DNA of 64,000 nucleotides from an uncultured Planctomycetales bacterium (GCA_964612665.1 CAZTCI010000006.1:13750-77749), one strand, 5' to 3'. Counted from the stretch's first letter, positions 35,786 to 64,000 are shown. The notes: generated by a model not told the origin, from the letters alone. Numbers and translations are program-made.

Positions 35786-35792
35786 TTTTAAA

Positions 35793-36684: not shown

Positions 36685-36758
36685 GTCCCTGTAGCTCAGA
36701 TGGATAGAGCAACAGCCTTCTAAGCTGTGGGTCGCCCGTTCGACTCGGGCCAGGGACG
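36685..36758 (+). tRNA. tRNA-Arg (anticodon TCT)
   Basis: Acceptor GTCCCTG/CAGGGAC; anticodon loop CTTCTAA; T-loop TTCGACT; no encoded CCA. Confidence 0.85.
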
Positions 36759-36840
36759 CCTAATTTACGAAAAGACAGTCCCGCTTTTTCTAATAGTTAA
36801 TGCTGTGAGCGGGGATCCCGCCTACCACAATTAATAGAGA

Positions 36841-44645: not shown

Positions 44646-45038
44646 TCAACCAATGTTTTTCCAAAGAGTGATTTGTTGATCCCAGTCGGACTCAGCAATG
44701 ATAGGACGGATGTCTTGGACGGTGATCCGTTTGATTTTGTCTGAATTATCGAGAAGTATTTCGTTTTGAATGGCAGGAGCGAGGTTAAGCAGACTCACGA
44801 TTTGACTTAAACGGGATTTGGTCAGGTTAAGCCACTGTGCGACTTGTTTAAAGTCTTTGGCCTTTCCGTCGCTAATGAGCTGTTCCACTTGATAGGCGAG
44901 GATGAGGCTTTGACGCAGACGCGGTTCATTACGGATTGATTTGCGCTTATTTTTAAGGCGAACATTCTTCAATTGTATAAGCGGTACATTGAAATCAAAC
45001 TGAAGCGGCAGGCTCATCTGGCTCCTTTTTCGGATCAA
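44646..45038 (-). CDS. small ParB/KorB-like HTH domain protein
   Basis: ...LTKSRLSQIVSLLNLAPAIQNEIL matches the ParB HTH signature (GKSRSxVxNxLRLLxLPxxVQ); overlaps the 3' end of the recombinase gene. Confidence 0.5.
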   Translation of the reverse strand: MIRKRSQMSLPLQFDFNVPLIQLKNVRLKNKRKSIRNEPRLRQSLILAYQVEQLISDGKAKDFKQVAQWLNLTKSRLSQIVSLLNLAPAIQNEILLDNSDKIKRITVQDIRPIIAESDWDQQITLWKNIG

Positions 45039-46377
45039 AGTTCATCCCGCATAAAAGTTTGATACCCGCTTCATTGAATACGAGACTCAAATTTTGCGTC
45101 GGCGCGTCATAGTCTATTCGTTTTAGCAATGTTCTAAGGAATCGCCCTTTCTCCTCGGGAAATAATTGATCCCACAAAGGCGAATTGATCAAAAAGACCT
45201 GTTTAAGTTTTGCCATCGTGACGGGCTGTGCTTTTGGATCAATTTGGTTGACCGCATTTAGGATTTCTTTCAAAGCGCCGTCATTATTGAGGACTGTTTT
45301 GATCAACTCGATGACTTTGTTCTCGGTATGCTCCGCGCTTAACAGGCGCGTCGGGCAGGAGTGATAGCCGCGTTTTTGGGCTTTGGAACACAAATAGTAA
45401 TGGTATTTGCGGCCCCTTTTGAGAGTATAAATGGAAAACATGGAACAATCACAGCTTTTGCAACGTAAAAGACGGCTGAGCAAACTACTGACGGGCTTTT
45501 TGTGAGGAATGTGTATTTCGCGCCTATTATTTTCAAGGATGGCTTGGGCTTTTTGGAATGTCTCAAGCGAAATAACCGCTTCGTGCTGGCCGTCGTAAAG
45601 TTCGTTTTGGTATTTGACCTTTCCGGCGTACAGAACGTTCCTAATAATAAGTTGAACGCCGCTATTGGTAAATTGTATCCCGCCGAATTTTGAACCTTTG
45701 GCCGACGTGAACTGCTTGGTTTTGTATTCCTTTTCATTGAGAATTCTGGCCACTTTATGAAGCGATTGTATTTCTAAATAAAGGTCGAAAGTCTCTTTAA
45801 CTATTTTAGCCTCGTTTGGGTTCAGGACGAGTTTGTGATTTTTGGTGTCCAGATCATAACCTAATGGAGGACGGCCGCCGATAAAACGGCCTTTCTTTTT
45901 GGCGGCGCCCATTTTGTCGCGTGTGCGTTCGCTGATAATTTCACGTTCGAATTGAGCGAAGGACAAAAGAATGTTGAGCGTCAAACGGCCCATGGATGAA
46001 TTGGTATTAAAGTGCTGGGTGACGGAAACAAAAGTTACGTGGTTTTGTTCGAAGAATTCCAGAAGCTGGGTAAAATCAAGCAGGGAACGAGAAAGACGGT
46101 CAACTTTGTAGACGACAACACAGTTGATGTTGCCTTCCTTAATATTATCGATCAAACGCTGAAGGGCGGGACGATCAGTATTGGCCCCGGTGAATCCGCC
46201 GTCATCGTAACGTTGGGGATAAACTTCCCAGTTATGTGATTTCTGGCTTTGGATGTAGCTTTCGGCCGACTCGCGCTGGGCGTCCAGCGAACTGAATTCC
46301 TGCGCCAGCCCTTCAGCGGTTGATACGCGCGTATAAATCGCGCACAGGATTTTTTGTTTTGGTTTTTCTTCTTCCAT
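44995..46377 (-). CDS. large serine recombinase (resolvase catalytic domain + recombinase domain + zinc-ribbon/coiled-coil)
   Basis: N-terminal YTRVST catalytic Ser region; recombinase domain; Cys cluster CKSCDCSM...YYLCSKAQKRGYHSCP. Confidence 0.85.
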   Translation of the reverse strand: MEEEKPKQKILCAIYTRVSTAEGLAQEFSSLDAQRESAESYIQSQKSHNWEVYPQRYDDGGFTGANTDRPALQRLIDNIKEGNINCVVVYKVDRLSRSLLDFTQLLEFFEQNHVTFVSVTQHFNTNSSMGRLTLNILLSFAQFEREIISERTRDKMGAAKKKGRFIGGRPPLGYDLDTKNHKLVLNPNEAKIVKETFDLYLEIQSLHKVARILNEKEYKTKQFTSAKGSKFGGIQFTNSGVQLIIRNVLYAGKVKYQNELYDGQHEAVISLETFQKAQAILENNRREIHIPHKKPVSSLLSRLLRCKSCDCSMFSIYTLKRGRKYHYYLCSKAQKRGYHSCPTRLLSAEHTENKVIELIKTVLNNDGALKEILNAVNQIDPKAQPVTMAKLKQVFLINSPLWDQLFPEEKGRFLRTLLKRIDYDAPTQNLSLVFNEAGIKLLCGMNFDPKKEPDEPAASV

Positions 46378-46381
46378 AAAA

Positions 46382-46843
46382 CTATTCCGTTAATCCGAAA
46401 AACAAAAATCCGTTCCATGTCATTCCGGTAATCTCATTGGCTATTCCGGAAAGCGAACGGTATACCTTGCCTTTGTACTCGAAGCCTTTGTCCAAAACTT
46501 TGACCTCGAGCTTCTTCCCTTTATATACCTTGGCAATAACGGTGCCGGGAATGGGCAAGCGCGGATCTCTGCGGGATCTGACGATGCCTTTCGAAGGCTT
46601 CGCGCTGTTGTTGACCGGATCGTGTTTGCGAATAAGCGACTCGGCCTTGTCCTTGGCGGCCTGACTTAATCCGCCGTGTTTCAATTCCTGCAGTTTGAAG
46701 ATGATCCTTTTGACAAGAAACGTCCTGTTGGAAGGAACCACCTTTTTGTCCCCGTAGAGTTTTTGGTATTTTTCTTTCAACTCCTTCATCGGCTTATTAT
46801 TCAAAGCCAACGCCTCTTTTAAAAACTCCTCTTGGTTGGTCAT
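46382..46843 (-). CDS. DUF2924-like protein commonly paired with serine recombinases
   Basis: C-terminal ...YKGKKLEVKVLDKGFEYKGKVYRSLSGIANEITGMTWNGFLFFG pattern; positioned immediately upstream of the recombinase in the same operon. Confidence 0.5.
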   Translation of the reverse strand: MTNQEEFLKEALALNNKPMKELKEKYQKLYGDKKVVPSNRTFLVKRIIFKLQELKHGGLSQAAKDKAESLIRKHDPVNNSAKPSKGIVRSRRDPRLPIPGTVIAKVYKGKKLEVKVLDKGFEYKGKVYRSLSGIANEITGMTWNGFLFFGLTE

Positions 46844-47268: not shown

Positions 47269-47336
47269 TATAAAAAACGAAAAGAGTTGAATGATAGTCC
47301 CGCGTTGAAGGGGGAACCTGGACTTTAAAAAAGTAA

Positions 47337-47376
47337 AACCTTCGTTGGGCGCAGAATGCCTAGCGAAGGTTTTTTA
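47337..47376 (+). terminator. rho-independent terminator (AACCTTCG...CGAAGGTT + T6)
   Basis: Inverted repeat and T-run. Confidence 0.6.
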
Positions 47377-47665: not shown

Positions 47666-50600
47666 ATGGCTTTCAATGAAAATACCAGAGTAAAAATTCC
47701 GGCAATTTTGCATTTATGCAGGTTGGGATTTCAATATCTTTCGTTAGCTAATGCCAAGTGGGATATCAACACCAATATCTTCCCAGATATTTTCTCTACG
47801 AGTATTAAATCGATTAATTCCGATAAAGATTTGAATGACAACGATATTAAAAAAGCGCTTGAAGATATTTCCTTGTGCCTAGACAACGAAGATTTAGGAG
47901 AAGAGTTTCATAAATGCCTTATCGCAACATCAGGAATCAAGCTGATTGATTTTAACGATTTTAATAAGAATAGTTTTCATGTCGTTACAGAGCTCACATA
48001 TAAGAATGGTGATGATGAGTTTAGACCGGACATAACACTTTTAATAAACGGAATGCCGCTGGCGTTTATTGAAGTCAAGAAGCCCAATAATCATGAGGGC
48101 ATACTGGCAGAGAGGGAACGGATCAACACAAGATTTAAAAACAAAAAATTCAGAAAATTTATCAACATTTTGCAGGTATTGGTCTTTTCCAACAACATGG
48201 AATATGACCACGATTCGATCGAGCCCATTCAGGGAACTTTTTACGCTTCGCCTTCCTATGGCGATGCAATTTTCAACTGCTTTAGAGAAGAAGATCCAGA
48301 GCCCATTTGTTCACTTAAAGCGGAAGATGATGCGATCGAGAATTTTATTCTGAAGGACAACAATCTCTCTGCGATTAAACATTCCCCAGAATTTATCACG
48401 AACAAATCAATAAACGCTCCTACCAACAGAATTATTTCTTCGCTATTCTGTCGTGAACGATTTTCGCTGCTTTTGAAATATTGCATTGCGTATGTGCAAG
48501 AATCAAAAGGAATAGAGAAGCACATTATGCGCTATCCGCAGTTGTTCGCCATGAGGGCGATTGCGCATAAAATCGACAAGGGAACAAAGAAGGGGATTAT
48601 TTGGCATACGCAAGGAAGTGGCAAGACAGCATTATCGTACTATAACGTCCATTTTTTGACTGATTACTTCCAGAAAAAAGGCGTTGTGCCTAAGTTTTAT
48701 TTTATAGTGGATCGTCTTGATTTGATGATTCAGGCAAAACGTGAGTTTACGATTAGAGGATTGACAGTTTCAACAGTAAATTCGAAAGAGGAGCTATTAA
48801 ATCATTTCAGGTTAAAGCAGGCTATTCATAATTTGTCCGGCAAAAGGGAGATCACCGTTGTCAATATTCAAAAATTTAAAGATGACTCAGATGTTTTGCG
48901 TGCGAATGATTACGATTTAAATATCCAGCGCGTATATTTTCTTGATGAAGTCCATCGAAGCTACAACCCAACCGGCAGTTTCTTGGCAAACCTTTTTAGT
49001 TCAGACAGAAACGCAATATTAATTGGTTTAACCGGAACCCCACTTATTTTATCTGATCGGCGGTCACGAGATATTTTTGGGGATTATATCCATAAATATT
49101 ATTACAATGCCTCTATTGCTGATGGGTATACATTGCGTTTGATACGAGAGGGAATTGAAACAAATTACAAGATTCAATTGGAGCAAGCGCTCAGACAGGT
49201 TGAGATTTTAAAAGGTGATGCGGATCGGCGTGTTGTTTATGCTCATGAGAAATTTGTTGAGCCAATGCTGGATTACATTATTCAAGATTTTATTAAAAGT
49301 AGGATTCGTTTCGGTGATCATTCCATTGGAGCTATGGTTGTTTGTGATAGTGCGGATCAGGCAAGAGAGTTATTTGATATATTCGTTGGTAAGTATAACC
49401 CCGAACAAGGAACAATAAATCCAGACCGTTCCATCCGAGTCGAAGATCCAACCACAGAATATAGCTCTTATCAAAAAACGCATGGTCATCTTGTCAGCTC
49501 TTTAATTTTGCATGATGTGGGATCAACCGATGACCGCAAACAAGAGATAGATGACTTTAAAGACGGAAAGATCGACATTCTGTTTGTATATAACATGCTT
49601 CTTACGGGTTTTGATGCTAAGCGTTTAAAGAAGCTTTATTTGGGACGCATTATAAAAGACCACAACTTATTGCAAACCCTAACACGCGTTAATCGTCCAT
49701 ATAAGAAATTTAGATATGGGTATGTGGTTGACTTTGCCGATATCCGTAAAGAATTTGAGGTGACCAACAAAGCCTATTTTGACGAATTGCAGGCCGAACT
49801 AGGCGATGAAATAAAGACGTATTCCAATCTTTTTAAATCGAAAGAAGAAATCGAGAAAGAGATCGCCGATATTAAAGAAAAACTTTTTCATTATGATTTG
49901 GTCAATGCCGAAATATTTTCGCAACAAATCAGCCAAATTGAAGACCGCAAGAAGGTATTGGAGATCAAGAAGGCCTTGGAAAACGCTCGAAACCTTTACA
50001 ATGTGATCCGTCTTTTTGGTCACGTTGAACTTCTTGAGAAGGTTGATTTTAAGAAATTAAATCAGCTTTATAACGAAACAGCCCGGCACCTTGATTTGCT
50101 TAACTTAAAGGAAACTGTCCAAAATAGCGTTGATACAACTAATTTGCTGAATGTGGCTTTAGAGAACGTAATTTTTATGTTCCGAAAAGTTTCCGAAGAA
50201 GAAATGGTCATTGCTGATCAACTTAAAGATATGCTTCGCAAGACACGTGAAGCATTAGGCAATAATTTTGACAAGAAAGCCCCGGAGTTTGTATTTCTAT
50301 ACGATGAATTAAAGCGTTTGTTTGATAAGAAGAATTTGGACGAAATATCCCAAGAGGAGATGAAGCAAAACATTGCTTCTTTACAGCAGATATATGACAA
50401 GGTAACGGAGCTTAATCGCCAGAACAATCTTCTTAAAGCAAAATATGAGAACGATGAGAAGTATGCCCGTGTTCATAAGAGGATTTTGGAGAAAGGGTCA
50501 ATTGCAAAACAGGAGAGCGAGATTTGCGGTGCTTTATTAAATATAAAGAAGCAGGCTGATGAAAAGATTCTCAGTAATACCCGAATTTTAGATAACGAAA

Positions 50601-50743
50601 GCTATTTTAACGGCATGCTTTTTCCAATGACAATAAACGGGTTTGAGAGCATTGATATTGAGCTTGATCCGGATTCAGCTGATTTTATCAATGCTTGTGT
50701 GGCCAAAGAATATATGAATGAGTATGAAGGGGCAGGGATCTAA
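47666..50743 (+). CDS. hsdR: type I restriction enzyme R subunit
   Basis: N-terminal PD-(D/E)xK nuclease core (PDITLLINGMPLAFIEVKKPN); helicase motif I GIIWHTQGSGKT; DEAH-like FLDEVHRS; 1025 aa. Confidence 0.85.
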   Translation: MAFNENTRVKIPAILHLCRLGFQYLSLANAKWDINTNIFPDIFSTSIKSINSDKDLNDNDIKKALEDISLCLDNEDLGEEFHKCLIATSGIKLIDFNDFNKNSFHVVTELTYKNGDDEFRPDITLLINGMPLAFIEVKKPNNHEGILAERERINTRFKNKKFRKFINILQVLVFSNNMEYDHDSIEPIQGTFYASPSYGDAIFNCFREEDPEPICSLKAEDDAIENFILKDNNLSAIKHSPEFITNKSINAPTNRIISSLFCRERFSLLLKYCIAYVQESKGIEKHIMRYPQLFAMRAIAHKIDKGTKKGIIWHTQGSGKTALSYYNVHFLTDYFQKKGVVPKFYFIVDRLDLMIQAKREFTIRGLTVSTVNSKEELLNHFRLKQAIHNLSGKREITVVNIQKFKDDSDVLRANDYDLNIQRVYFLDEVHRSYNPTGSFLANLFSSDRNAILIGLTGTPLILSDRRSRDIFGDYIHKYYYNASIADGYTLRLIREGIETNYKIQLEQALRQVEILKGDADRRVVYAHEKFVEPMLDYIIQDFIKSRIRFGDHSIGAMVVCDSADQARELFDIFVGKYNPEQGTINPDRSIRVEDPTTEYSSYQKTHGHLVSSLILHDVGSTDDRKQEIDDFKDGKIDILFVYNMLLTGFDAKRLKKLYLGRIIKDHNLLQTLTRVNRPYKKFRYGYVVDFADIRKEFEVTNKAYFDELQAELGDEIKTYSNLFKSKEEIEKEIADIKEKLFHYDLVNAEIFSQQISQIEDRKKVLEIKKALENARNLYNVIRLFGHVELLEKVDFKKLNQLYNETARHLDLLNLKETVQNSVDTTNLLNVALENVIFMFRKVSEEEMVIADQLKDMLRKTREALGNNFDKKAPEFVFLYDELKRLFDKKNLDEISQEEMKQNIASLQQIYDKVTELNRQNNLLKAKYENDEKYARVHKRILEKGSIAKQESEICGALLNIKKQADEKILSNTRILDNESYFNGMLFPMTINGFESIDIELDPDSADFINACVAKEYMNEYEGAGI

Positions 50744-52365
50744 TGACACAAGATATTATTTCAAAAACCAAATCCTTAATTGACGGACTAAAAGGCACGT
50801 GCGCCAATTATGGTCTTGGTAATGATGGCAACGAATACAAGATCATTACGCAGGCATTTCTTTATAAGTTTATGAATGATAAGTTTAGCTATGAGGTCAA
50901 AGAGATTGAACCAAAGCTAAAGACCTCCGCGAATTGGGAACAGGAAGTTGCAAAATATTCTGATAAACAATATGACATGCTTCTTAAACGGATGGGTCCT
51001 GACAGTGCCAAGTTAAAAAGAGAGCATTTCTTATCTAATTTGCATAACAAACAAAATACTGAAGAATTTGCAAAACTTTTTGATGATACCTTGCGCGATA
51101 TAGCTATTTTTAATAATGAAATTTTTTCTGTCAAAACAGGCCGGGGAGCCAAGGTCACGTTGTTCGATGAATTAAGTAATTACATCACGGATAGTTCAAA
51201 ACGTGATGATTTTTGCCGCGCTATTGTCAATCAGCTCGTAAATTTTAGTTTTGAAAAGATTTTCTGTCAGAAGTTTGATTTCTTCTCGACGATATTTGAA
51301 TACCTAATTAAGGATTACAATAAAGATGGGGGAGGTAAATATGCGGAATACTATACCCCCCACGCTGTTGCAGAGATTATGGCTTCCATTTTGGTGGATA
51401 AGCAGGTCAAAAATGTCACCTGTTATGATCCTTCGGCGGGCTCGGGTCAATTGCTTATGAATCTTGCTCATGTGATAGGGGAGGATCGTTGCACGATTTA
51501 TTCGCAGGATATTTCACAGAAGTCATCCAGTATGTTGCGTTTGAATCTGATTTTAAATAATCTTGTCCACTCCATTCAGAATATCATTCAAGAAAACACA
51601 TTGCTTAATCCGTATCATAAGGTTGAAGACAAGTTGATGACGTTTGACTATATTGTTTCAAATCCGCCATTTAAGTTAGATTTTAGTGATTGGCGCAATG
51701 ATTTGGATACCAAGCAAAACCATAGTCGTTTTTTTGCCGGGATACCGAATATTCCCAATAAAGATAAAGACAAAATGGCTATTTATTTGCTCTTTATCCA
51801 GCATATTATCTTTTCACTTTCTTCTAAAGGGAAGGCTGCCATCGTTGTTCCCACAGGTTTCCTGACGGCTCAAAGTGGCATCGAGAAAAAGATTCGTGAG
51901 AAGTTGGTGGAAGAAAAGATGTTGCGTGGAGTGGTTTCAATGCCGAGCAATATTTTTGCGACTACCGGCACAAATGTTTCCATTTTATTTTTGGATAAAG
52001 CTAACACTAAGGGCGACATCGTTTTGATGGATGCTTCTAAACTAGGCGCCACGGTTAAGGAGGGCAAGAATCAAAAGACCCTGCTATCGGAAGAGGAAGA
52101 GAATCGCATTATTTCGATTTTTAATCAACATAAAGCTTCAGACGATTTTTCTGTAGTTGTGAGCTATGAGCAGATTAAAGAAAAGAATTATTCTTTCAGT
52201 GCCGGCCAGTATTTTGACATAAAGATTGAGTATGTTGATCTTACGCCTAAGCAGTTTGCCGCTAAAATGGACGGTTTCAAGCAGAATATCGATTCACTTT
52301 TTGTCCAAAGCGGAGCGTTGGAGAAAGTGATCAAAAAGCAATTAGATAAATTGAAACATGGATAA
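50743..52365 (+). CDS. hsdM: type I R-M N6-adenine DNA methyltransferase subunit
   Basis: Motif I DPSAGSGQLL; motif IV IVSNPPF; start overlaps the hsdR stop. Confidence 0.85.
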   Translation: MTQDIISKTKSLIDGLKGTCANYGLGNDGNEYKIITQAFLYKFMNDKFSYEVKEIEPKLKTSANWEQEVAKYSDKQYDMLLKRMGPDSAKLKREHFLSNLHNKQNTEEFAKLFDDTLRDIAIFNNEIFSVKTGRGAKVTLFDELSNYITDSSKRDDFCRAIVNQLVNFSFEKIFCQKFDFFSTIFEYLIKDYNKDGGGKYAEYYTPHAVAEIMASILVDKQVKNVTCYDPSAGSGQLLMNLAHVIGEDRCTIYSQDISQKSSSMLRLNLILNNLVHSIQNIIQENTLLNPYHKVEDKLMTFDYIVSNPPFKLDFSDWRNDLDTKQNHSRFFAGIPNIPNKDKDKMAIYLLFIQHIIFSLSSKGKAAIVVPTGFLTAQSGIEKKIREKLVEEKMLRGVVSMPSNIFATTGTNVSILFLDKANTKGDIVLMDASKLGATVKEGKNQKTLLSEEEENRIISIFNQHKASDDFSVVVSYEQIKEKNYSFSAGQYFDIKIEYVDLTPKQFAAKMDGFKQNIDSLFVQSGALEKVIKKQLDKLKHG

Positions 52366-53563
52366 GTTAAGAAAATATAAATTTAACGAACTATACACAA
52401 TGAGTTCCGGGATTTCTTCTAAACCTGAACAAGCTGGACACGGTTGCCCTTTCGTGTCTTTTAGTACTGTATTTAATAACTATTTTTTGCCAGATGCCTT
52501 GAATGAATTAATGGATACATCTGAGCAGGAACAAGAAAAGTATTCAATTCAAAAAGGCGACATTTTATTAACACGAACAAGTGAAACTATTGATGAGCTT
52601 GGGATGAGTTGCGTTGCCTTGAAAGATTACCCAAGAGCAACATTTAGTGGTTTTGTGAAAAGACTGCGCCCAACGCAAAAAGATATTACCTATGAGAAAT
52701 ACATGGGGTTTTATCTGCGTAATAAATTTTTTAGAAAGATAATGACTAACAACGCATTTATAACTCTGCGCGCCAGTCTGAATGAGGCAATTTTTTCTTA
52801 CATTAATCTTTACCTTCCAGATTATCAGACCCAAGTAAAGATTGGCGACTTTTTGCATCTTCTGAATAAGAAAATTGATCTCAATCAGCGCATCAATGCT
52901 GAGTTAGAGTCAATGGCAAAGACTTTGTATGATTATTGGTTTGTGCAGTTTGATTTTCCAGATAAAAACGGAAAACCATATAGGTCTAGCGGTGGAAAAA
53001 TGGTTTGGAATGAAGATTTGAAGAGGGATATCCCGTTTGGGTGGGAGGTTGGAAATTTAGAATTAGAATTTGAAGTAAAAAAAGGAGATCTAATCACCGA
53101 GAAAACAAAGGAAATCGGAACTGTGAAGGTTATTGCTGGCGGTATAGATTTTGCTTATTATCATTCAATATCAAATCGTGAGGAGAATACTATAACGGTT
53201 AGCGGTTCTGGAGCTAATGCAGGTTATGTAAACTTCTGGAGAGAGAAAATTTATGCGTCAGACTGTACGACAGTCAGGGGCAAATCTGATATTGAAACAA
53301 TTATTGCTTTTTATTATCTAAAATTAATCCAAAATCAAATTTACAGATATTCTCAAGGTTCAGCTCAACCTCACGTATATCCCACAGATATAAAGAAATT
53401 ACCTTACGTTTATGCTCCAAGAGAAATTTGTGGCTTAATTGAGCCGCTAGTAATCCCCTTAAATCAAAAAATTACAAATAATCTAATTGAAAATCAAGAA
53501 CTCGCGGAACTACGCGATTGGCTTCTCCCTATGCTCATGAACGGACAGGTTAAGGTGGCTTAA
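52358..53563 (+). CDS. hsdS: type I R-M specificity subunit (two target-recognition domains)
   Basis: Size, position overlapping the hsdM end, duplicated TRD-plus-conserved-helix architecture. Confidence 0.7.
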   Translation: MDKLRKYKFNELYTMSSGISSKPEQAGHGCPFVSFSTVFNNYFLPDALNELMDTSEQEQEKYSIQKGDILLTRTSETIDELGMSCVALKDYPRATFSGFVKRLRPTQKDITYEKYMGFYLRNKFFRKIMTNNAFITLRASLNEAIFSYINLYLPDYQTQVKIGDFLHLLNKKIDLNQRINAELESMAKTLYDYWFVQFDFPDKNGKPYRSSGGKMVWNEDLKRDIPFGWEVGNLELEFEVKKGDLITEKTKEIGTVKVIAGGIDFAYYHSISNREENTITVSGSGANAGYVNFWREKIYASDCTTVRGKSDIETIIAFYYLKLIQNQIYRYSQGSAQPHVYPTDIKKLPYVYAPREICGLIEPLVIPLNQKITNNLIENQELAELRDWLLPMLMNGQVKVA

Positions 53564-53604: not shown

Positions 53605-54792
53605 ATGAATAGAAGCATTAGAAAATCGATAAGCGTCAACGAGATTGACTATCTACTGAAATTAAACGAAGTTCCCGAAGACAAATGCGCGCATTTAAAG
53701 CCTGCCCTATTTGAAGATCCCCGTTCTGAAAGAGTGTTTCTTTTAAAAGAAGAGATCAAAACCCTAGATGATTTAAGAACCGTTGTTAGTGGAATTGTAG
53801 AAAACCAGATAATCATTGAGTCAATTGTAAATGGTTTCGCTGTTTTTGATGATTTAAAAATCCCCGAAGGGATTAAGGATGCATTCTTGGGCACGGATAA
53901 AATTGCATTCTTTATAGGTGCGGGTGTTTCAAGATTATTGGGTATTCCATTGTGGGAAGCTTTGGCCAAAGATGTGATTTCCTATCTTAATGATAAGAAT
54001 TTGATCAATAAAGCGGAAGCGGATTACCTTAAGAATGATGTTGCTTCTCCTAGGCAGATTATTTCGATATTCCATCAGATTGTAAAAGATAAGAATGAAA
54101 GGGAGGCATTTTATAAAGATAAGTTAAAAAGGGACGATAAAGATCATGAGAATCCATATGAGGTGCTTTTTAAGTTTGAAAATGCAATTGCAAAACCTAT
54201 AACAAAAATTACTACAAATATTGATTCAGAATGGCAAAGCCTTTTGAAGGCGAAAGAAGATGATAGGTTGAGGGATAAAGATGAACAAGGAACAATAAAA
54301 AATCCTAAGGTTTTATTTGAGGGAATCATCGACAACGGATTTAAAAAAGGAATCAGGATAAATGACAGGGTTTTGTACCATATTCATGGAAGTTTCGACA
54401 ATTTTGATGAAGCGGTATTAACCACAGAAAACTATGTTAATTGTTATAACGATGAAGAAGGTTTGAAAGGTTTTTTAAGCGACGTTTTCAGGTCACACAC
54501 TGTTATTTTTTTTGGATCGGGTATGCAAGAATTTGAAATTCTGGTCCATTGTTTAGAACATTCTTCATCACAGCATTATGCATTAGTTGGAACAGGTCTA
54601 GGGCAAGAGAATTTATTTAGAATTAAGAAGGCATATTTTTCTAATATTAAAGTAAAAGCAATTCCGTATTATTTAGATTTTCAAGGCTATGAAAGATTAA
54701 CTATTCTTTTGAATTCATGGATAAAGGAAATCACGCTATTAAAAAGTCAGCAATTTTATGAAGGTATTCAAAGGATAGATGAGGTTTTATGA
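53605..54792 (+). CDS. SIR2-like (SIR2_2-type) protein, predicted NAD+-consuming effector
   Basis: Rossmann motif FFIGAGVSRLLGIPLWEAL; ITTNID (compare the TTNYD catalytic Asn motif); YHIHGSF...VLTTENY (catalytic His, HGS...T..Y); stop overlaps the start of the next gene (ATGA). Confidence 0.6.
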   Translation: MNRSIRKSISVNEIDYLLKLNEVPEDKCAHLKPALFEDPRSERVFLLKEEIKTLDDLRTVVSGIVENQIIIESIVNGFAVFDDLKIPEGIKDAFLGTDKIAFFIGAGVSRLLGIPLWEALAKDVISYLNDKNLINKAEADYLKNDVASPRQIISIFHQIVKDKNEREAFYKDKLKRDDKDHENPYEVLFKFENAIAKPITKITTNIDSEWQSLLKAKEDDRLRDKDEQGTIKNPKVLFEGIIDNGFKKGIRINDRVLYHIHGSFDNFDEAVLTTENYVNCYNDEEGLKGFLSDVFRSHTVIFFGSGMQEFEILVHCLEHSSSQHYALVGTGLGQENLFRIKKAYFSNIKVKAIPYYLDFQGYERLTILLNSWIKEITLLKSQQFYEGIQRIDEVL

Positions 54793-57700
54793 GTTTAGGT
54801 GATAAAGAAAAGGCTGTCATTGCCCAGATTGAAACTGATCAAAGTCAGAAGAATTATTTTTTTCAGAAAGTGAAAGACGTAAAATGGTTTTACTATCTGA
54901 AAGAAAGAAATTATTTTTCTCCAAATTCGATTCCCTATACAACAGATAATCGGGCAATGTTTTGGATTGTGCTGGATTATTTAGAGCGCGTTTCAGAACA
55001 GCTTGGTACAAACCCTGAATTTGGCAAAGAATTATTGGATATCATCAATGATGTCCTTATTCATTCGAGTCAAAGGAAAGTCAATAATTACCATATCTGG
55101 TGGTTTTTTGTAAAAATCCTTAACAATATTCCAAATTCAACTATAAGTAAATTTTTGCCGATTGATGATAAAAATATAAAGGGTGTAGTTAAACCCGGGT
55201 TCTTATCTTTATTAAATGATCTTTTGGACCCCTCACAAAGTAGTGAATTGGCCATTAGTGATGTTAGTGAAAAATTGCTTCCTAAGTTCTTGAGTGATGC
55301 TGCAATGACGCCTTATGCAGAGGCAATTATTGATTGCATTACTAGAATAAAAGCCAAAGGAGTTGTTAATTCTTTCACTAAAGAGGATGAGGTTGTTTTA
55401 GTTTGGAATGAATATTGGATTCTAAAAGCGTTTAATCAATACGCTAAATTGATAGGTACCAATTGTTCTAATGCTGCAATTTATTCCATTGCAGATCACC
55501 TTAAATCTGCGCTTCAATTTACGAGGAAAAGTTTTTACGTTAATTTAGAAATAGATAATTCTGAATATCAGATAAAAGTCGAAAGAGTTAAGAAAGAAGA
55601 CCCTAATCCGTTTGAGTTAAGATTTGAAGACCGTGTTTTTGTAGGTTCCTTTTTGCAGTACGGAGAAGATCAACTTAAAGGAATTGATGTTGAGAAGGAT
55701 TTTTGGTCTTTACATAAAATAGAACCTTCAAATGTTATCACTTCTGCGTTCACTTTCACCGCAGAAGACAAAAATAATTTTATTAAAAGAATTGAAGAGA
55801 ATTTACCGAAAGATATCAATTGGAAATCATCAGTTCATTATGAAAAGAGAATTAATGGTTTATTCGGAGGTATACATGAGGATTACTCAAGCGTTTGGTG
55901 TAAATCCTTATCAGATGGCCCGGAACATACCTCCGGTGCTGAAGAAGTATTAACGGTCGCTTTGAGGGATTCTTTAATAGGTAAGTGTGAAAATGATCCT
56001 GTGAATGCTAGATTGATTTTAAAAGATTTTCTTACATTAAAATATCCATTCCCAATTTTTAAGAAGTGCGCGTTGGTCTGCATGAATAAATTTTGGAATA
56101 ATTTCCAAGATTTTCTAATCGTATTTTTAAATGGACTTCCAAGTACCGCCCATTCTTCAAATTATGAGTCTGAATTTTATGATATCTTGAAAAATCATAA
56201 TCCTGAATTTACTCAAGAGATCAATGAAAGAGTCTTAAGTTTTATTAATGATGTGCCTGAACATTATGAGGATGAAGGGGAAGAAGCCAAAGCTCTTTGG
56301 AAATATAGATGGCTATCACCTCTTAAGGATAATCCGTTCTTTGCGGCTGCTTATAAGGAAAATGTGGTTAAGGCAAATTTAAAGGAAGACGTTCCTTTTA
56401 TTCCTGAACGATCATCCATGAGAGGTGGGTTTGTTAAACATGTTTCTCCGCTAACGGTTGAAGAGATAATGATACTTTTGGCTGAGAATAAATTGGTAGG
56501 CTATTTGAAAGAATATATAGGCGCTGATGAGTGGAGCGGATCATTTGAAGGTAAACCAGATAAGGAAGGGTTAAAAGAAACGCTTCGACAGGCAGTAAAG
56601 GAAAACCCTGAAAAATTCTGTGAAGCGCTTTCATTATTTAAAGACACTCATTATGAGTACGTAAATCAAATACTGTGGGGATTAAAGGACGTATGGAATG
56701 AAGGTAGGTACATAGGATGGGATAAGATTTTTGATTTTAGCTTAGACTATCTTAATAGAGGTAGCTTTACCGATGAAGCTAAACAAGCACAAGGTGAAGA
56801 TTATATCAAGGGTAGGCATCTATGGATAATTGACATAATTAGTGATTTGATTGAATCAGGATCAAGGAATGATGAAAAAGCCTTTGACCCTAAATTCTTT
56901 CCGAAAGTTTATCCATTATATGACCGCATGTATATGCTTGTTGAAGGTGGAAAGAATAATGATACGCAAAGAGATGCAGTGAATTATGCGATTAATACCT
57001 CTTTAGGCCATGTCACGGAGTCATTTATTATTTTCTCATTAAGGGTTGCCCGGGCAGAGAAGAAGGTGGAGGATAATTGGGGTCAGGGCAAGTATGAGCG
57101 ATTTATACAAAAGGGAGTTGAGGCCTATACCTTTTTAGGTAGATTTTTACCTCAATTTAATTTTTTAGATAAGGGATATACTAAAGCTAAGATTGATGAA
57201 CTGGCAAAGAGAAATCCTGATGATGCTGAATGGCTGGGCTTTATAGAGGGATATCTAACAGGTTCTGATCTTTATCTAGATCTTTATAAGTCAATGAGAG
57301 CGCATTATCTTAAAGTCATTGATCATAAAATGACCAACGAAAGAATTGATAATCAGATGGTAAGGCATTTGACATTAGGATATTTAAATGGAATTGAGGG
57401 GCTAGAGGACGAAGATAGTTTGTTTAAAAAAATGCTTGCTGATGCTTCAACCCAAGATAAGCGAAATAGATGGGAAGAAGCTGTAAGCTGTATGTGGTCA
57501 ATTTCTGAAAGATCATTAAGGGATGATTTGAAAAAGAAAGAGCCTAAAAAAGAATTTAAGAATAAAGTTTTGGAATTTTGGAGTTGGTTAAATGGGCCAA
57601 GCTGTTTTGCAAAAGAAAAGCTCGGTAATGACTATAATTCATTCCTTGGCAAATTGCTGCGTTTTACAATCTTCTTGGACAAGATTGATACGAACTCTGA

Positions 57701-58004
57701 AAATTGGTTATTGAATTCAGTGTCTCATGTCGAGCAATATGACACATTCTTTATTGAGTATTTAACTAAATTCAAAGATGATCAAAGTGTAAAGAGTATA
57801 GGTAATATTTATTTAAAACTTCTTGAGGCCACTACGCCCATTTACAAGGAAGAAGATATTAAAACGATTATTGAAAGGTTATATGAACTTGGCAAAAAAG
57901 ATGCGGATGTTAAAAAAGTAACCGATTCGATTGTTACCATTTACGGAAAGCGGAATGCCCATTTTCTGAAGCCACTCTGGTCAAAATACAATAATAAAAG
58001 TTAA
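54789..58004 (+). CDS. 1071-aa alpha-helical protein with no recognisable domain, translationally coupled to the SIR2-like gene
   Basis: Long ORF, AT-rich codon usage matching the island; helix-rich Lys/Glu/Asn/Tyr/Trp-rich sequence; no Walker A, nuclease or TM motif found by eye. Confidence 0.55.
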   Translation: MSLGDKEKAVIAQIETDQSQKNYFFQKVKDVKWFYYLKERNYFSPNSIPYTTDNRAMFWIVLDYLERVSEQLGTNPEFGKELLDIINDVLIHSSQRKVNNYHIWWFFVKILNNIPNSTISKFLPIDDKNIKGVVKPGFLSLLNDLLDPSQSSELAISDVSEKLLPKFLSDAAMTPYAEAIIDCITRIKAKGVVNSFTKEDEVVLVWNEYWILKAFNQYAKLIGTNCSNAAIYSIADHLKSALQFTRKSFYVNLEIDNSEYQIKVERVKKEDPNPFELRFEDRVFVGSFLQYGEDQLKGIDVEKDFWSLHKIEPSNVITSAFTFTAEDKNNFIKRIEENLPKDINWKSSVHYEKRINGLFGGIHEDYSSVWCKSLSDGPEHTSGAEEVLTVALRDSLIGKCENDPVNARLILKDFLTLKYPFPIFKKCALVCMNKFWNNFQDFLIVFLNGLPSTAHSSNYESEFYDILKNHNPEFTQEINERVLSFINDVPEHYEDEGEEAKALWKYRWLSPLKDNPFFAAAYKENVVKANLKEDVPFIPERSSMRGGFVKHVSPLTVEEIMILLAENKLVGYLKEYIGADEWSGSFEGKPDKEGLKETLRQAVKENPEKFCEALSLFKDTHYEYVNQILWGLKDVWNEGRYIGWDKIFDFSLDYLNRGSFTDEAKQAQGEDYIKGRHLWIIDIISDLIESGSRNDEKAFDPKFFPKVYPLYDRMYMLVEGGKNNDTQRDAVNYAINTSLGHVTESFIIFSLRVARAEKKVEDNWGQGKYERFIQKGVEAYTFLGRFLPQFNFLDKGYTKAKIDELAKRNPDDAEWLGFIEGYLTGSDLYLDLYKSMRAHYLKVIDHKMTNERIDNQMVRHLTLGYLNGIEGLEDEDSLFKKMLADASTQDKRNRWEEAVSCMWSISERSLRDDLKKKEPKKEFKNKVLEFWSWLNGPSCFAKEKLGNDYNSFLGKLLRFTIFLDKIDTNSENWLLNSVSHVEQYDTFFIEYLTKFKDDQSVKSIGNIYLKLLEATTPIYKEEDIKTIIERLYELGKKDADVKKVTDSIVTIYGKRNAHFLKPLWSKYNNKS

Positions 58005-58256: not shown

Positions 58257-58299
58257 ACCCCGTTGGGAATTTATAGAGCCCGTCGGGGTTTTGCTTTTT
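58257..58299 (+). terminator. terminator-like hairpin (CCCCG...CGGGG + TTTTGCTTTTTT)
   Basis: Read directly, downstream of the 1071-aa gene. Confidence 0.45.
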
Positions 58300-58915: not shown

Positions 58916-60175
58916 ATGAAAATTCAAAAAGTAAAAATTAATCAAATTAATCCCGCTGCATATAATCCTCGTAAAGATTTGCAGCCCGGCGATGCCGAAT
59001 ATGAACAGCTTAAGAAAAGCATCAACACATTTGGTTATGTGGAACCATTGGTCTGGAATGAACGCACAGGGAATCTCGTCGGAGGCCACCAGCGGTTTAA
59101 GATTCTGCTCGAACAAGGCGCAAAGGAAGTCGAAGTCAGCGTCGTTGATCTGGATGATGAGAAGGAAAAATCACTCAATCTGGCCTTAAATAAGATTCAG
59201 GGCAAATGGGATATTGAAAAACTCGGAGAACTTCTGGAAGAATTGACCAAGAATCCCGACTTTGACAACCTGCTGACCGGTTTTGATCTGCCGGAAATAA
59301 GCCAGATATTCGATCAATTGGAGCAAATCAGGCAGGATAAATTCGATTTTGAGCGCGAAGTCAAGAAGATCAAGAACCCAAAAACTAAGCGGGGTGACCT
59401 TATCGAGCTTGGAGAGCATCGTATTTTATGCGGCGATTGCTCAAATCCGGAAGACATAGCAAATCTTTTTGGCAAAGAAAAGGCCGGGTTGATCCACACC
59501 GACCCGCCCTATAATGTCAATTACTACGGAGGCAACCGTCCAAGCGCCAAAGCGCGTCCCAAGAGTTCCAAACAATGGGACAGAATTTACAGCGATGACA
59601 TGACGCAGGAAGAATATGAAGCGTGGCTTAAGAAAGTTTTGACCAATGGTGCAAAATTTATTGATGAAGGCGCGGCCATTTACATATGGAACGGACACCG
59701 GCAATTTGGCCCGATGTATTTGATGCTTCTTGAAATGGGTTTTCACATCGGATGTGTAATCACATGGGCAAAGGAAAGATTCGCCATCACCTACGGGAAC
59801 TATCATCAGCAGACGGAATTCTGTTTATACGGCTGGAAGGAAAAGAACGGCGGGCATAAATGGTACGGCCCCAATAATGAATCGACCTTGTGGCAGGTCA
59901 GCCGCGATAACACCGGAGACTATATTCATCCGACGCAAAAGCCAATTGCGCTTGCCCATCGAGCCATTAAAAACAGTTCAAAACGAGGCGATATTGTTCT
60001 GGATATGTTTTTGGGATCGGGAACGACCCTCGTGGCTGCCGAAACTTTAAAAAGAAGATGCTTTGGAACTGAAATCGATCCGTCTTACTGCGATGGAATT
60101 GTTCTACGCTATGCTGAATTCGCCGGGAAAAATAAGATTTCTAAAGAAGTGTTATCCAAATATGGAATTGAATAA
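58916..60175 (+). CDS. ParB-like nuclease domain fused to a DNA (N6-adenine/N4-cytosine) methyltransferase, phage-type
   Basis: N-terminal ParB-like region (KVKINQINPAAYNPRK, GGHQR); MTase motif IV DPPY before motif I FLGSGTT (beta-class order). Confidence 0.8.
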   Translation: MKIQKVKINQINPAAYNPRKDLQPGDAEYEQLKKSINTFGYVEPLVWNERTGNLVGGHQRFKILLEQGAKEVEVSVVDLDDEKEKSLNLALNKIQGKWDIEKLGELLEELTKNPDFDNLLTGFDLPEISQIFDQLEQIRQDKFDFEREVKKIKNPKTKRGDLIELGEHRILCGDCSNPEDIANLFGKEKAGLIHTDPPYNVNYYGGNRPSAKARPKSSKQWDRIYSDDMTQEEYEAWLKKVLTNGAKFIDEGAAIYIWNGHRQFGPMYLMLLEMGFHIGCVITWAKERFAITYGNYHQQTEFCLYGWKEKNGGHKWYGPNNESTLWQVSRDNTGDYIHPTQKPIALAHRAIKNSSKRGDIVLDMFLGSGTTLVAAETLKRRCFGTEIDPSYCDGIVLRYAEFAGKNKISKEVLSKYGIE

Positions 60176-60190
60176 TGGAGGCAACAATTC

Positions 60191-60877
60191 ATGCCTGATA
60201 AAGAAGAACCTTTAGAAGAATCGCAATTGCCCGCGTTTCAAATTATTAAACAGATTAAAGAAGGAATCGTTGATCCTAAAAAGTTACCTCCGGATATACG
60301 TCAGGCATGTGTCGAGTGTTTGCTCATGCAATTTATGTCAATTCCTAAGATAGCACTTTTGATGAACGTAGATGATCGTACAATTCAGCGCGACAAGAAA
60401 GCGATTGATCAAAGAAATTCTCAAAAGCCATCGATAGATTACTCTTTGGAATTGATTGCCGAATTGAAACGAAAATCCGATGCAACACAAGAACAATTAA
60501 TGGAGTTGACGAGAGACAAGGATGGTTCTGTTCAAGAAAAAGGTCAAGCCTTGTTTTATTTGGGAAAACTTCTTCATGAACAAATAAAGTTGATGCAGAG
60601 TTTAGGATATCTGCCCGTACAACCGTTGAAAATTGAACAGACCATAAGTCAAGAAAGTGGCCGGGACGTTACTCAGTTAAAAATAGAATTGGCTGAAGCC
60701 GAAAAAGTGGCGAATGAAAGAGGTCGGGCCGATGATCCTGCCATTGCCGGATTGATAAAAGCTATCAAGCAGGAAATCGCCATCGCCGAAGCCAATAACA
60801 ATATGGATGAGTTAAAGAAACTCATTAGCCCGCCGCCAAAGGATGAAGGAACGTCTCATGATTCAGGCGGCCAATAA
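60191..60877 (+). CDS. putative terminase small subunit / HTH DNA-binding protein
   Basis: HTH-like segment IPKIALLMNVDDRTIQRD; position directly upstream of the large terminase. Confidence 0.4.
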   Translation: MPDKEEPLEESQLPAFQIIKQIKEGIVDPKKLPPDIRQACVECLLMQFMSIPKIALLMNVDDRTIQRDKKAIDQRNSQKPSIDYSLELIAELKRKSDATQEQLMELTRDKDGSVQEKGQALFYLGKLLHEQIKLMQSLGYLPVQPLKIEQTISQESGRDVTQLKIELAEAEKVANERGRADDPAIAGLIKAIKQEIAIAEANNNMDELKKLISPPPKDEGTSHDSGGQ

Positions 60878-62537
60878 ATTAAAACTTCTTCGCAGAGAAT
60901 TAGGCCGCAAATCCATCCTTGATTTTGCCAAGTTTTATTTTCCTCATTACATGACGACCAAGTCGTGTTCCTTTCATGAGGAAATTTCCCGTTTTCTGAT
61001 GGATATTTCGGAGACACATAGCGATGGGCGTCTTGCCGTTGCCGCGCCTCGTGGACATGCCAAGAGCACGGTGGTGAGTTTTTTCTATGTGATGTGGTCG
61101 ATTTGTTATGAAAAAGAGAAATTCATTTTGATTCTTTCGGCCACAGCCAAACAAGCGCAGACATTATTGGCGGATATTTCAAAAGCGTTGGAAACCAATT
61201 CGAAATTACTGGATGATTTCTCGGATGTTTTCAATGAAAAAGGCGGTGTTAAATCAAAATGGACGCAGGATGAGATCGCCACCAAAAACGGTATTAAGGT
61301 AATGGCTTTGGGTTCGGAGCAGGATTTGCGCGGTCTCAAAAAATATCAGGATAGGCCAACGCTTATCGTTCTCGATGACGTCGACAGCACAAAAAATACG
61401 TACAACACACCGGTCAGAGAGAAGCTGATGAATTGGTTTACGCGAGACCTTCTCAAAGCAGGCGCAAAAGATTTTAATATGGTCGCTGTGGGAACGCTTC
61501 TTCATCCCGAAGCCCTATTAAGCAGACTTACAAAACAAGAAGAATTTCCGGATTGGAATAAACGGATTTACAAGGCAGTCATCCGGTTTTCCGAACGCAA
61601 AGATCTGTGGCAAAAATGGAGCAACATTCTTTTTAGTAGAGATGTTTTTGATGATGAGGCTGGATTAAAGGCCGCCGACAAATTTTTTGAGGCGCATAAA
61701 CAAGAAATGCTCGAAGGAACAAAAGTTCTGTGGCCGGAAATTGAAGATTATTACAAGCTGATGAAGATTAGAGAAATCGAGGGCACATACAGCTTCGATT
61801 CCGAGAAACAAAACGATCCCACCAATGCCAAAGATTCACGTTATGATCCCGATAAATTTTATTATTGGGACGATGAATTTAGTAGTGTCGAACAACTTCT
61901 TGCTTCTTTCGGAAGCGAATACAGCATCATTGCCGCCTGCGATCCCAGCGTGGGCGTCGTTAATACCAAAGCCGATCATTCCGCCATCATCGTTCTAGCC
62001 AAGCATAAGGGCAAACTTTACGTCATTGATGCCGACATTACGCAACGGCCACAGGACGATTTGGTTCAATCCATCATTAACTACTGTAAAATTCGCAGGC
62101 CGATGGAGAAATTTATCATTGAATCAAATTTGTTTCCCGAACTGTTGGTCAAATATATTCTGGAACGGGCTGGGCAGGAAAACGTGCCTGCTCCTCTGAA
62201 GGAAACACGCAATACTAAAAACAAAGAGTTGAGAATTTTCGGAATGGAAACGTATATCACAACCGGAATAATTTTATTTTCGAAACGCCATCAAACCTTG
62301 CTGGATCAATTGAAATATTTTCCCCGCGATTCTCATGACGACGGCCCCGATGCTTTGGAGATGGCTTTAAGAGGAGCTGAATTAAACAACGTGACTTTTA
62401 TGGATTTGACGGAAAAGAAAGATAAACGTGGGCGGCCTGAAAGCCATCCGGATTTTGGGCATCCTTCCGTTATTGATGACACAATGGACGAGGATGATGA
62501 GGGAGAAGGAAAAATAAGAGGATATCGTTTGGATTAA
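60843..62537 (+). CDS. phage terminase large subunit (ATPase + RNase H-like nuclease)
   Basis: Walker A-like AAPRGHAKST, Walker B LIVLDDVD, nuclease Asp motifs IAACDPS and DDGPDALEMAL. Confidence 0.75.
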   Translation: MKERLMIQAANKLKLLRRELGRKSILDFAKFYFPHYMTTKSCSFHEEISRFLMDISETHSDGRLAVAAPRGHAKSTVVSFFYVMWSICYEKEKFILILSATAKQAQTLLADISKALETNSKLLDDFSDVFNEKGGVKSKWTQDEIATKNGIKVMALGSEQDLRGLKKYQDRPTLIVLDDVDSTKNTYNTPVREKLMNWFTRDLLKAGAKDFNMVAVGTLLHPEALLSRLTKQEEFPDWNKRIYKAVIRFSERKDLWQKWSNILFSRDVFDDEAGLKAADKFFEAHKQEMLEGTKVLWPEIEDYYKLMKIREIEGTYSFDSEKQNDPTNAKDSRYDPDKFYYWDDEFSSVEQLLASFGSEYSIIAACDPSVGVVNTKADHSAIIVLAKHKGKLYVIDADITQRPQDDLVQSIINYCKIRRPMEKFIIESNLFPELLVKYILERAGQENVPAPLKETRNTKNKELRIFGMETYITTGIILFSKRHQTLLDQLKYFPRDSHDDGPDALEMALRGAELNNVTFMDLTEKKDKRGRPESHPDFGHPSVIDDTMDEDDEGEGKIRGYRLD

Positions 62538-62771: not shown

Positions 62772-64000
62772 TCAGAGGCGTCGCCGAACCTCTGGGATAC
62801 CCCCACCCCAGATAGGACATGAGGCCCCTTTGGCGAATACGTTGAAGGGGCTTCTGTATGTTGGCGTTATAGTTACGTCATTTATGACGTAGTTCGAGGC
62901 TATGGTTTTTAAGATTTCAGACTTATCGTGAGGATTTGAGCTAAGATATTGAGGATACAACGAGTTACAGAGTTCGAGGGTTTTAATTCCGTCTTCATAA
63001 AAGTTCGGATTTATTCGTTCAGATTGTCGCATTTGGCTTTTTAAATCCACTAAATTATTTTCCAATTCTGTTTTTTTCTGCTTAAAAGCTTCATCGGCGA
63101 TTTCGTTATCAAGTCGCATATCAAAGAGTCGATTTAATCGACTACTCACCTTCGAATGTTCTTCCTGCAAAGTATTAATCTTTTTTTCGAGAAGCAGAGT
63201 AGATTCTGAAGAGAACTCTTTCAGATGTCGCTTAAACATCGTGACAATTTCATCGGGAATAGTGATTCTGCGGACAGAATCAGCAAAGAGATCAGCTAGT
63301 CCTGATTCCGTAAAATACCCCACGCATTCTTCACGGCGTCCTTTTGAGTAGGAACAATGATAATAAACATATCGTTCTTTTTTTATTTCTCCAAGAACCT
63401 TGCATCCACAGTTACCACATGATGCTAAATTAGCAAAGGCAAAACCTCTTCTTTGAATGGTCGGTTGAACTCGGTCTTTTCCGTGGAGCACAGCCTGAAC
63501 TTGGTCAAAGAGAGCTTTTGAAATGATTGGCTCATGAGTTCCTTGGTAAGACCTATCTTTGATTCGAAATACACCATAATAAAATGAATGGTGTAATACA
63601 CGATGCAAAGCACTTTTAGAATATGGATTACCTTTTTTGCTACGCAATCCTTCGCGATAAAGAAGCTCATTGAGCATTTTAATCGAGTAATTTCCCGTAG
63701 CCATAAGGCTAAAAGCCTTTTGGATGTATGGAGCTCTTTCTTTATCAATCTCAACAGAACGAGTAAGAGGGTTATTCAGATATCCGATAGGGGCAAGGGT
63801 AGGGTACTCGCCCTGCGCCGCTTTCTGCTCTAGCCCAATACGTGTTTTTTCAGAAACCTTTTTAGAGCCCATTTTCGCTAAGGCAACTTCGATATCAAAT
63901 ATAAAAAGCTCATCAGCAGAGGAAGTTTTATTGTAAATCTTATTTGAGCGGGCGAAGTGAATAGTTTTTCCATAATGATTGATAAGTAGGGATATTTCCA
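62772..64000 (-). CDS. large serine recombinase, N-terminus beyond the window end
   Basis: Recombinase domain + Cys cluster (CGNCGCKV...YYHCSYSKGRREEC) + coiled-coil. Hand translation upstream of the first Met remains open to position 64000 and reads like the end of a resolvase domain. Confidence 0.75.
   Translation of the reverse strand, partial: EISLLINHYGKTIHFARSNKIYNKTSSADELFIFDIEVALAKMGSKKVSEKTRIGLEQKAAQGEYPTLAPIGYLNNPLTRSVEIDKERAPYIQKAFSLMATGNYSIKMLNELLYREGLRSKKGNPYSKSALHRVLHHSFYYGVFRIKDRSYQGTHEPIISKALFDQVQAVLHGKDRVQPTIQRRGFAFANLASCGNCGCKVLGEIKKERYVYYHCSYSKGRREECVGYFTESGLADLFADSVRRITIPDEIVTMFKRHLKEFSSESTLLLEKKINTLQEEHSKVSSRLNRLFDMRLDNEIADEAFKQKKTELENNLVDLKSQMRQSERINPNFYEDGIKTLELCNSLYPQYLSSNPHDKSEILKTIASNYVINDVTITPTYRSPFNVFAKGASCPIWGGGIPEVRRRL

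Follow-up and report, generated by a model that had tools for sequence, protein, structure and literature searches.

A probable two-gene form of the DSR1 anti-phage system beside type I restriction-modification genes in an uncultured Planctomycetales bacterium

The gene pair and its correspondence to DSR1

A 64,000-nucleotide stretch of DNA from an uncultured Planctomycetales bacterium (GCA_964612665.1, CAZTCI010000006.1:13750-77749), here called the window and numbered from its first nucleotide, carries at positions 53605 to 58004 two overlapping genes that encode a SIR2 protein of 395 amino acids (aa) and a partner of 1,071 aa. The pair is very probably a two-gene, or split, form of DSR1 (defense-associated sirtuin 1), an anti-phage system reportedly described by Gao et al. 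in 2020 and Garb et al. in 2022. Its features, based on open reading frame (ORF) calls, alignments, and structure models, are as follows.

53605..54792, + strand: SIR2 effector gene, ATG start, 395 aa (ORF call)
53605..53859, + strand: first 85 residues of the SIR2 protein, forming a small alpha/beta domain that only the ~395-aa class has
54217..54219, + strand: codon of the predicted catalytic Asn205 (KITTNID), invariant in 35 SIR2 partner sequences
54385..54387, + strand: codon of the predicted catalytic His261 (HIHGS), invariant in the same 35 sequences
54789..54792, + strand: ATGA stop/start overlap of effector and sensor genes (sequence), with predicted translational coupling
54789..58004, + strand: Dsr1-type sensor gene, ATG start, 1,071 aa (ORF call)
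55518..55877, + strand: beta-rich insertion of ~120 aa, sensor residues ~244-363, located by a BLASTP gap (residues 549 to 559 of the fused homologue P0101) and AlphaFold2 strands at 248-290 and 315-324

An initial annotation of this DNA, made from the sequence alone, had pointed out the ATGA overlap of the two ORFs, which is indeed seen at 54789-54792. Shine-Dalgarno-like sequences lie 5' of both starts (AGGA before the 395-aa ORF and GAGG before the 1,071-aa ORF), and the G+C fraction is 0.33 to 0.35 across the pair versus 0.41 to 0.45 in the flanks.

The three SIR2 hallmarks named in that annotation are present in the 395-aa translation: FFIGAGVSRLLGIPLW (residues 102-117), which reads GAGVS...GIPLW, followed by KITTNID (N205) and HIHGS...TTENY (H261). 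Pfam SIR2_2 matches the protein with an E value of 8e-13, which exceeds the gathering score, and the alignment of 35 SIR2 partners bears out the Asn and His, both of which are invariant. When PDB sequences were searched with a profile, N205 corresponded to the Asn of the ITTNYD motif of DSR2, which we take to be N133, and H261 corresponded to the His of VHGD, the H171 of the H171A PDB entries. The AlphaFold2 model of the protein (predicted local distance difference test [pLDDT] score, 89.2; predicted template modeling score, 0.84) has its best fold matches among the SIR2 domains of DSR2, ThsA, KomC, and FAM118B. By these comparisons the 395-aa protein is a defense-type SIR2 protein with predicted catalytic Asn and His residues.

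Two segments flank the SIR2 domain. The 85-aa N-terminal domain, confidently folded in the AlphaFold2 model (pLDDT, 82 to 94), is covered at 100% in about 40 clusters of 391 to 415 aa, is missing from the ~300-aa SIR2 partners at other loci, and had no Pfam or other family match. The C terminus consists of a long helix (residues 357-394) and a low-confidence tail with a conserved IDEVL motif. Because the same segment continues into the sensor in fused proteins, the helix and tail are a plausible docking element.

The partner had been described as entirely alpha-helical and free of ATPase, nuclease, TIR, and transmembrane motifs. The second part of this description is consistent with our search, in which the 1,071-aa protein had no Pfam match; the first part has to be corrected, since the AlphaFold2 model (mean pLDDT, 88.7), while mostly helical, contains beta strands at residues 128-135, 187-204, 248-290, and 315-324. 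No PHROG match was found for the protein, and tblastn of phage genomes returned no homologue. The ~120-aa beta-rich insertion likewise had no family match; it is found in 166 of 228 relatives, TIR-fused and SIR2-fused forms among them, and is missing from the canonical fused DSR1. Judged by its alignments, the sensor is equivalent to DSR1 minus the SIR2 domain, with a predicted N-terminal helical lobe and a large Dsr1-type alpha-solenoid.

Both proteins were found to match one PADLOC model, Dsr1 PDLC04166 (1,227 positions), in consecutive segments, SIR2 residues 85-394 aligning with profile positions 11-300 (E value, 6.5e-48) and sensor residues 334-1068 aligning with positions 515-1225 (E value, 1.7e-94). 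The fused reference for pairwise comparison was P0101, a 1,274-aa homologue from the protein search that matches PDLC04166 from end to end, as do the fused homologues P0201 and P0223. By BLASTP, SIR2 residues 76-395 correspond to P0101 residues 10-306, sensor residues 7-243 correspond to 314-549, and sensor residues 364-1068 correspond to 559-1266 (E values in the sensor comparison, 9e-92 and 7e-32). Because these alignments are collinear, the gene boundary can be placed in a linker of ~8 residues right after the SIR2 domain. P0201, a fused member of the clade that bears the insertion, has the same junction and the same collinearity (PADLOC Dsr1 E value, 2e-252). A 1,324-aa "SIR2 family protein" from Bacillus cereus-group plasmids is collinear with sensor residues 8-1068 by tblastn (99% query coverage), shows this junction too, and itself matches PADLOC Dsr1 with an E value of 2.6e-143.

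The shared PADLOC model and the collinearity with fused DSR1 argue strongly that the pair represents DSR1 divided at the linker between effector and sensor. It had been put forward as a candidate novel system whose partner could not be matched to a known family; this part of the annotation does not stand, because the PADLOC search assigns both proteins to Dsr1. Split DSR1 is a common, little-described version of a known defense system and not a new class. In a study of the Avs7/Dsr1 sensor published in Nature in 2026, the methods state that "split proteins" were handled by analyzing adjacent sequences (PMC13581612), from which it appears that split forms have been noticed before; no description of them was found in the main text searched. 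No relevant report on two-gene DSR systems, or on SIR2 next to hsdS, was retrieved from the literature searched.

Distribution of the split form and exchange of effectors

Among 1.84 billion representatives searched with a profile, 3,824 relatives were retrieved at E values up to 1e-3. The 228 full-length close relatives comprise 167 sensor-only proteins, 31 proteins fused to an unknown domain of ~165 aa, 19 fused to TIR, 8 fused to SIR2, and 3 with other extensions. Hosts are mostly metagenome-assembled genomes (MAGs) of Omnitrophota, with others in Patescibacteria, Thermodesulfobacteriota, Nitrospinota, Bacillota, Pseudomonadota, and further groups, and the nearest relatives of both DSR1 proteins of the window are likewise from Omnitrophota MAGs.

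A SIR2_2 gene lies directly 5' of sensor homologues that share 52%, 44%, 36%, and 26% identity with the window protein, in unrelated contexts. Among GTDB loci that encode a sensor only and retain both an intact sensor N terminus and the upstream flank, a SIR2 ORF is directly upstream in 23 of 23, a count in which L042 was left unclassified; in six other GTDB loci the sensor is fused to an N-terminal domain other than SIR2. When metagenomic loci that retain the same two regions are added to those from GTDB, the gene-neighborhood search recommended in the initial annotation finds the SIR2 gene upstream in every case, about 26 loci after removal of redundancy, with sensors as little as 26% identical. 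Of 29 loci, 10 share the ATGA overlap of 4 nucleotides; in most others the two genes either overlap or are separated by 13 nucleotides or fewer. The split is also found in a second clade that is free of the insertion and nearer to canonical DSR1 (P0110, L050). At one further locus (L035, 648-3844), three ORFs in a row make up the sensor homologue and a truncated SIR2 ORF precedes them, apparently a decayed two-gene copy.

Sensors and their SIR2 partners do not diverge closely in step. Pairwise identities of the two proteins are correlated with an r of 0.30, a value reached in 11 of 2,000 permutations, and comparison of the window with L001 revealed sensors that are 52% identical next to SIR2 proteins that are 27% identical and of different length classes. 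The weak correlation and this mismatch, together with the fusions to TIR and to the ~165-aa domain, point to exchangeable effectors on a conserved sensor. Effector exchange has been reported for the Avs7/Dsr1 sensor family (PMC12803255, PMC13581612), with which our census agrees.

The ~165-aa domain is helical and His/Arg-rich and replaces SIR2 at the N terminus (residues 1-165) of sister proteins of 1,205 to 1,245 aa, namely, P0013, P0016, P0060, and about 28 other clusters, with loci that include L007, L012, L014, L018, and L025. Its motifs are HaAREIDGGLRD, HkkSILf, and hkyAHRxGaWK, and neither Pfam nor PADLOC gave a match. It is a candidate uncharacterized effector domain. The possibility that it is a TIR domain was discarded after hhalign against a TIR domain indicated no relationship.

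The integrated element and the type I restriction-modification genes

The pair lies 3' of type I restriction-modification (R-M) genes, in an island with the following features.

44995-46377, - strand: large serine recombinase at the left edge of the island (Pfam)
46382-46843, - strand: DUF2924 protein at the left edge of the island (Pfam)
47335-47373: terminator-like hairpin before hsdR (consensus scan)
47666-50743, + strand: hsdR (Pfam)
50743-52365, + strand: hsdM (Pfam)
52358-53563, + strand: hsdS, ending 41 nucleotides before the SIR2 gene (Pfam)
58274..58293, + strand: terminator-like hairpin with a T tract, 270 nucleotides past the sensor stop codon (consensus scan)
58916-60175, + strand: ParB-N6/N4 DNA methyltransferase (phrog_498, E value 5e-127; Pfam)
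58916..62537, + strand: phage-derived genes to the right of the pair, which include a 228-aa ORF besides the methyltransferase and terminase genes listed here
60843-62537, + strand: large terminase subunit (phrog_38, E value 1e-100; Pfam)
62772-63872, - strand: recombinase ORF of 366 aa that has Recombinase and zinc-ribbon domains and lacks a resolvase catalytic domain

The setting described in the initial annotation, 3' of hsdRMS in an AT-rich, recombinase-bounded island, is thereby corroborated, with a complete hsdRMS set at 47666-53563, low G+C content, and recombinases at 44995-46377 and 62772-63872, of which the latter is probably a second serine recombinase, truncated or decayed, on the right side of the island. 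Since terminase and ParB-methyltransferase genes stand beside the pair, the island resembles a prophage remnant or a phage-derived integrative element rather than a plain defense island. A ParB-methyltransferase gene also adjoins the split DSR1 of L050 and L041. No att-like direct repeats bounding the island were found within the window, beyond which the right end may lie. A downstream 183-aa ORF was considered as a third component and rejected, as no homologue of it is found beside other pairs.

Terminator-like hairpins are found before hsdR and after the sensor gene and nowhere between hsdR and the end of the sensor gene. The scan for promoters gave no more sites than expected by chance, so that the proposal of an operon is based on gene spacing and the two hairpins; hsdRMS and the pair are possibly co-transcribed as a five-gene operon.

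In 12 other loci (L001, L007, L011, L012, L014, L015, L017, L022, L023, L031, L033, and L036), a DSR1-type module directly follows type I R-M genes that share its strand. These modules are split or fused, and stop and start codons often overlap at the joint. By their HsdM proteins, the upstream R-M systems fall into four or more unrelated lineages, with differing gene orders and DSR1-type variants; within one HsdM lineage (74 to 88% identity), a split SIR2 pair is downstream in L001 and a fusion to the unknown domain is downstream in L007. The unrelated lineages and the differing modules within a single lineage imply that the linkage is recurrent and was not inherited as one block, which suggests either a cargo slot or a functional pairing. 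In two loci (L001, 9238-12238, and L002, 5624-8624), the split DSR1 is preceded by hsdRMS and followed by genes for GmrSD-family (type IV restriction) and MauJ-domain proteins, forming a compact multi-system defense cluster.

Two readings give the R-M linkage a larger part. According to the broader one, the split DSR1 clade would be an in-trans platform, in which one sensor with the beta insertion serves interchangeable separate or fused effectors (SIR2 lineages, TIR, and the ~165-aa domain), has been recruited repeatedly to the 3' side of type I R-M genes, where it is co-expressed with them and forms a second layer, and perhaps has a non-capsid trigger or responds to anti-restriction; as a whole this seems to us unlikely. 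In the narrower one, the module is functionally tied to the type I R-M genes beside it as a second line or guard, is co-expressed with them, perhaps senses anti-restriction, and is not an autonomous DSR1. The shared strand, the short distance to hsdS, the placement of the hairpins, the recurrence in 12 further loci and at least four HsdM lineages, and the stop/start overlaps with hsdS in L001 and L007 would all fit such a coupling. However, the pair stands without any R-M genes in many loci (L003, L005, L008, and L050), fused DSR1 works alone in heterologous hosts, and defense genes cluster generally. We consider a functional coupling to the R-M system rather improbable and retain split DSR1 as the preferred reading.

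To the left of ~44.6 kb the window is chromosomal, with genes for a histidine kinase and PtsP, tRNAs, and, immediately beside the island, ZnuABC. Several large chromosomal ORFs of 544 to 1,081 aa had no NCBIfam match at E values up to 1e-10 (16-2652, 9395-12109, 23165-26410 on the - strand, 30918-32552, and 33449-35458), which is consistent with a poorly characterized lineage. A protein with a HipA-like kinase C-terminal domain (35685-36653; HipA_C E value, 1e-50) is encoded directly before tRNA-Arg (36685-36760) and may be a toxin-antitoxin remnant unrelated to the pair.

Related systems, proposed mechanism, and remaining alternatives

The pair shares with DSR1 the SIR2 effector family with its catalytic Asn and His, the sensor family, and the effector-then-sensor order. 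It differs in consisting of two ORFs, where DSR1 is a single polypeptide, in having the ~120-aa sensor insertion and the 85-aa SIR2 N-terminal domain, and in occurring chiefly in lineages without cultured members, such as Omnitrophota. The SIR2 NADase domain of DSR2 is the closest solved fold to the window effector (Foldseek E value, 1e-10), and DSR2 too has a large helical sensor that recognizes a phage structural protein, a role that the window sensor may share by analogy. In contrast, DSR2 is a single polypeptide, the window proteins had no PADLOC Dsr2 match at E values up to 1, and the DSR2 C-terminal domain is not among the listed fold matches of the window sensor. Exchange of effectors on one sensor scaffold, as in the window clade, is also a property of Avs7. 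Avs7 combines a STAND NTPase with a bilobed TPR sensor of the Dsr1 type, and the Avs7 and Dsr1 sensors both recognize the phage major capsid protein (PMC12803255, PMC13581612); the window pair, unlike Avs7, has no STAND NTPase domain.

In two-gene SIR2 systems (SIR2-HerA/Nezha, SIR2-pAgo/SPARSA, and Thoeris ThsA-ThsB), a SIR2 NADase likewise stands beside a separate sensing or regulating protein, but the window partner lacks HerA ATPase, Argonaute, TIR, and SLOG domains and instead corresponds to a detached DSR1 sensor. For SIR2-HerA, neither a Pfam ATPase in the partner nor a PADLOC HerA match was found. For Thoeris, a weak match to the ThsA model was limited to the SIR2 part (E value, 1.8e-10), and the locus encodes neither a SLOG domain nor a TIR protein. 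For Avs5 and SIR2-STAND, Pfam and PADLOC identified no NTPase domain in either protein.

These findings show DSR1 to be widespread in two-gene form, so that activation presumably crosses a non-covalent interface between sensor and SIR2 protein. Split DSR1 thus offers a natural in-trans system for studying how a Dsr1/Avs7-type sensor switches its effector, as sensors and effectors can be mixed and the components titrated, and it calls for caution in annotation pipelines that take DSR1 to be a single gene. The census further draws attention to effector swapping, to an uncharacterized candidate effector domain, and to the repeated linkage with type I R-M genes.

DSR1 depletes NAD+ during infection, and the fused form is active as a single gene in heterologous hosts (10.1101/2021.12.14.472415). 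The Dsr1 sensor is common to Avs7, the trigger of EcDsr1 is the phage major capsid protein, and mutations in its effector abolish both toxicity and defense (PMC12803255, PMC13581612). The window pair is best read as depleting NAD to counter phages, a role that its sequence relationships support well. By analogy with fused DSR1, the SIR2 protein and the sensor would form a non-covalent complex, with the effector probably docked on the sensor through the C-terminal helix and IDEVL tail. The sensor would probably capture a conserved phage structural protein, and this capture would switch on the SIR2 protein, which would hydrolyze NAD+ and so halt phage replication. The module is carried on a low-G+C integrated element with phage-derived genes and is probably co-transcribed with the type I R-M genes.

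Several results weigh against a DSR1 assignment or against parts of this scheme. Searches of PDB sequences with the 1,071-aa sensor alone and with its 65-sequence profile returned nothing, and fold searches with the sensor yielded only generic HEAT/ARM solenoids, from a PDB fold library that is probably older than the SeAvs7 entries, so that direct homology to the Avs7 sensor is putative. A second PADLOC Dsr1 model gave a weak match (E value, 4e-5), and the window proteins are tied to E. coli Dsr1 only indirectly, via PADLOC models. Owing to this indirect link and to the ~120-aa beta insertion, the trigger could differ from the capsid protein. Finally, the weak correlation between SIR2 and sensor identities lends no support to a co-evolving interface.

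The first of these results would suit a new SIR2 defense system with a helical partner unrelated to any described sensor, given that searches of Pfam, PHROGs, and PDB sequences gave no match for the partner and that its fold matches are generic solenoids. Such a system is nonetheless highly improbable, because the partner matches PADLOC Dsr1 with an E value of 1.7e-94, aligns collinearly over almost all of its residues with fused DSR1 and with TIR-fused proteins (25 to 35% identity), and belongs to a clade that includes SIR2-fused members. Deacylation is also catalyzed by SIR2 domains, and the pair could on that ground be a housekeeping or regulatory sirtuin, a protein deacylase, with a scaffold partner instead of an immune NADase. 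This explanation is scarcely more than conceivable in view of the SIR2_2 domain, the defense NADases DSR2, ThsA, and KomC as closest sequences and folds, and the patchy, horizontally transferred distribution in a low-G+C setting of mobile elements and R-M genes. Least credible of all is a DSR1 gene broken by a frameshift, either a pseudogene or an assembly error, for which the adjacent reading frames, the 4-nucleotide overlap exactly at the domain linker, and the sensor in three ORFs at L035 might be cited, because the split is conserved across many lineages with tight but differing junctions and a sensor start codon in each of about 26 non-redundant loci from many phyla, the split loci are not near-identical repeats of a single assembly, sensor-only proteins account for 167 of the 228 relatives, and the two ORFs of the window have their full length, Shine-Dalgarno-like sequences, and intact conserved residues.

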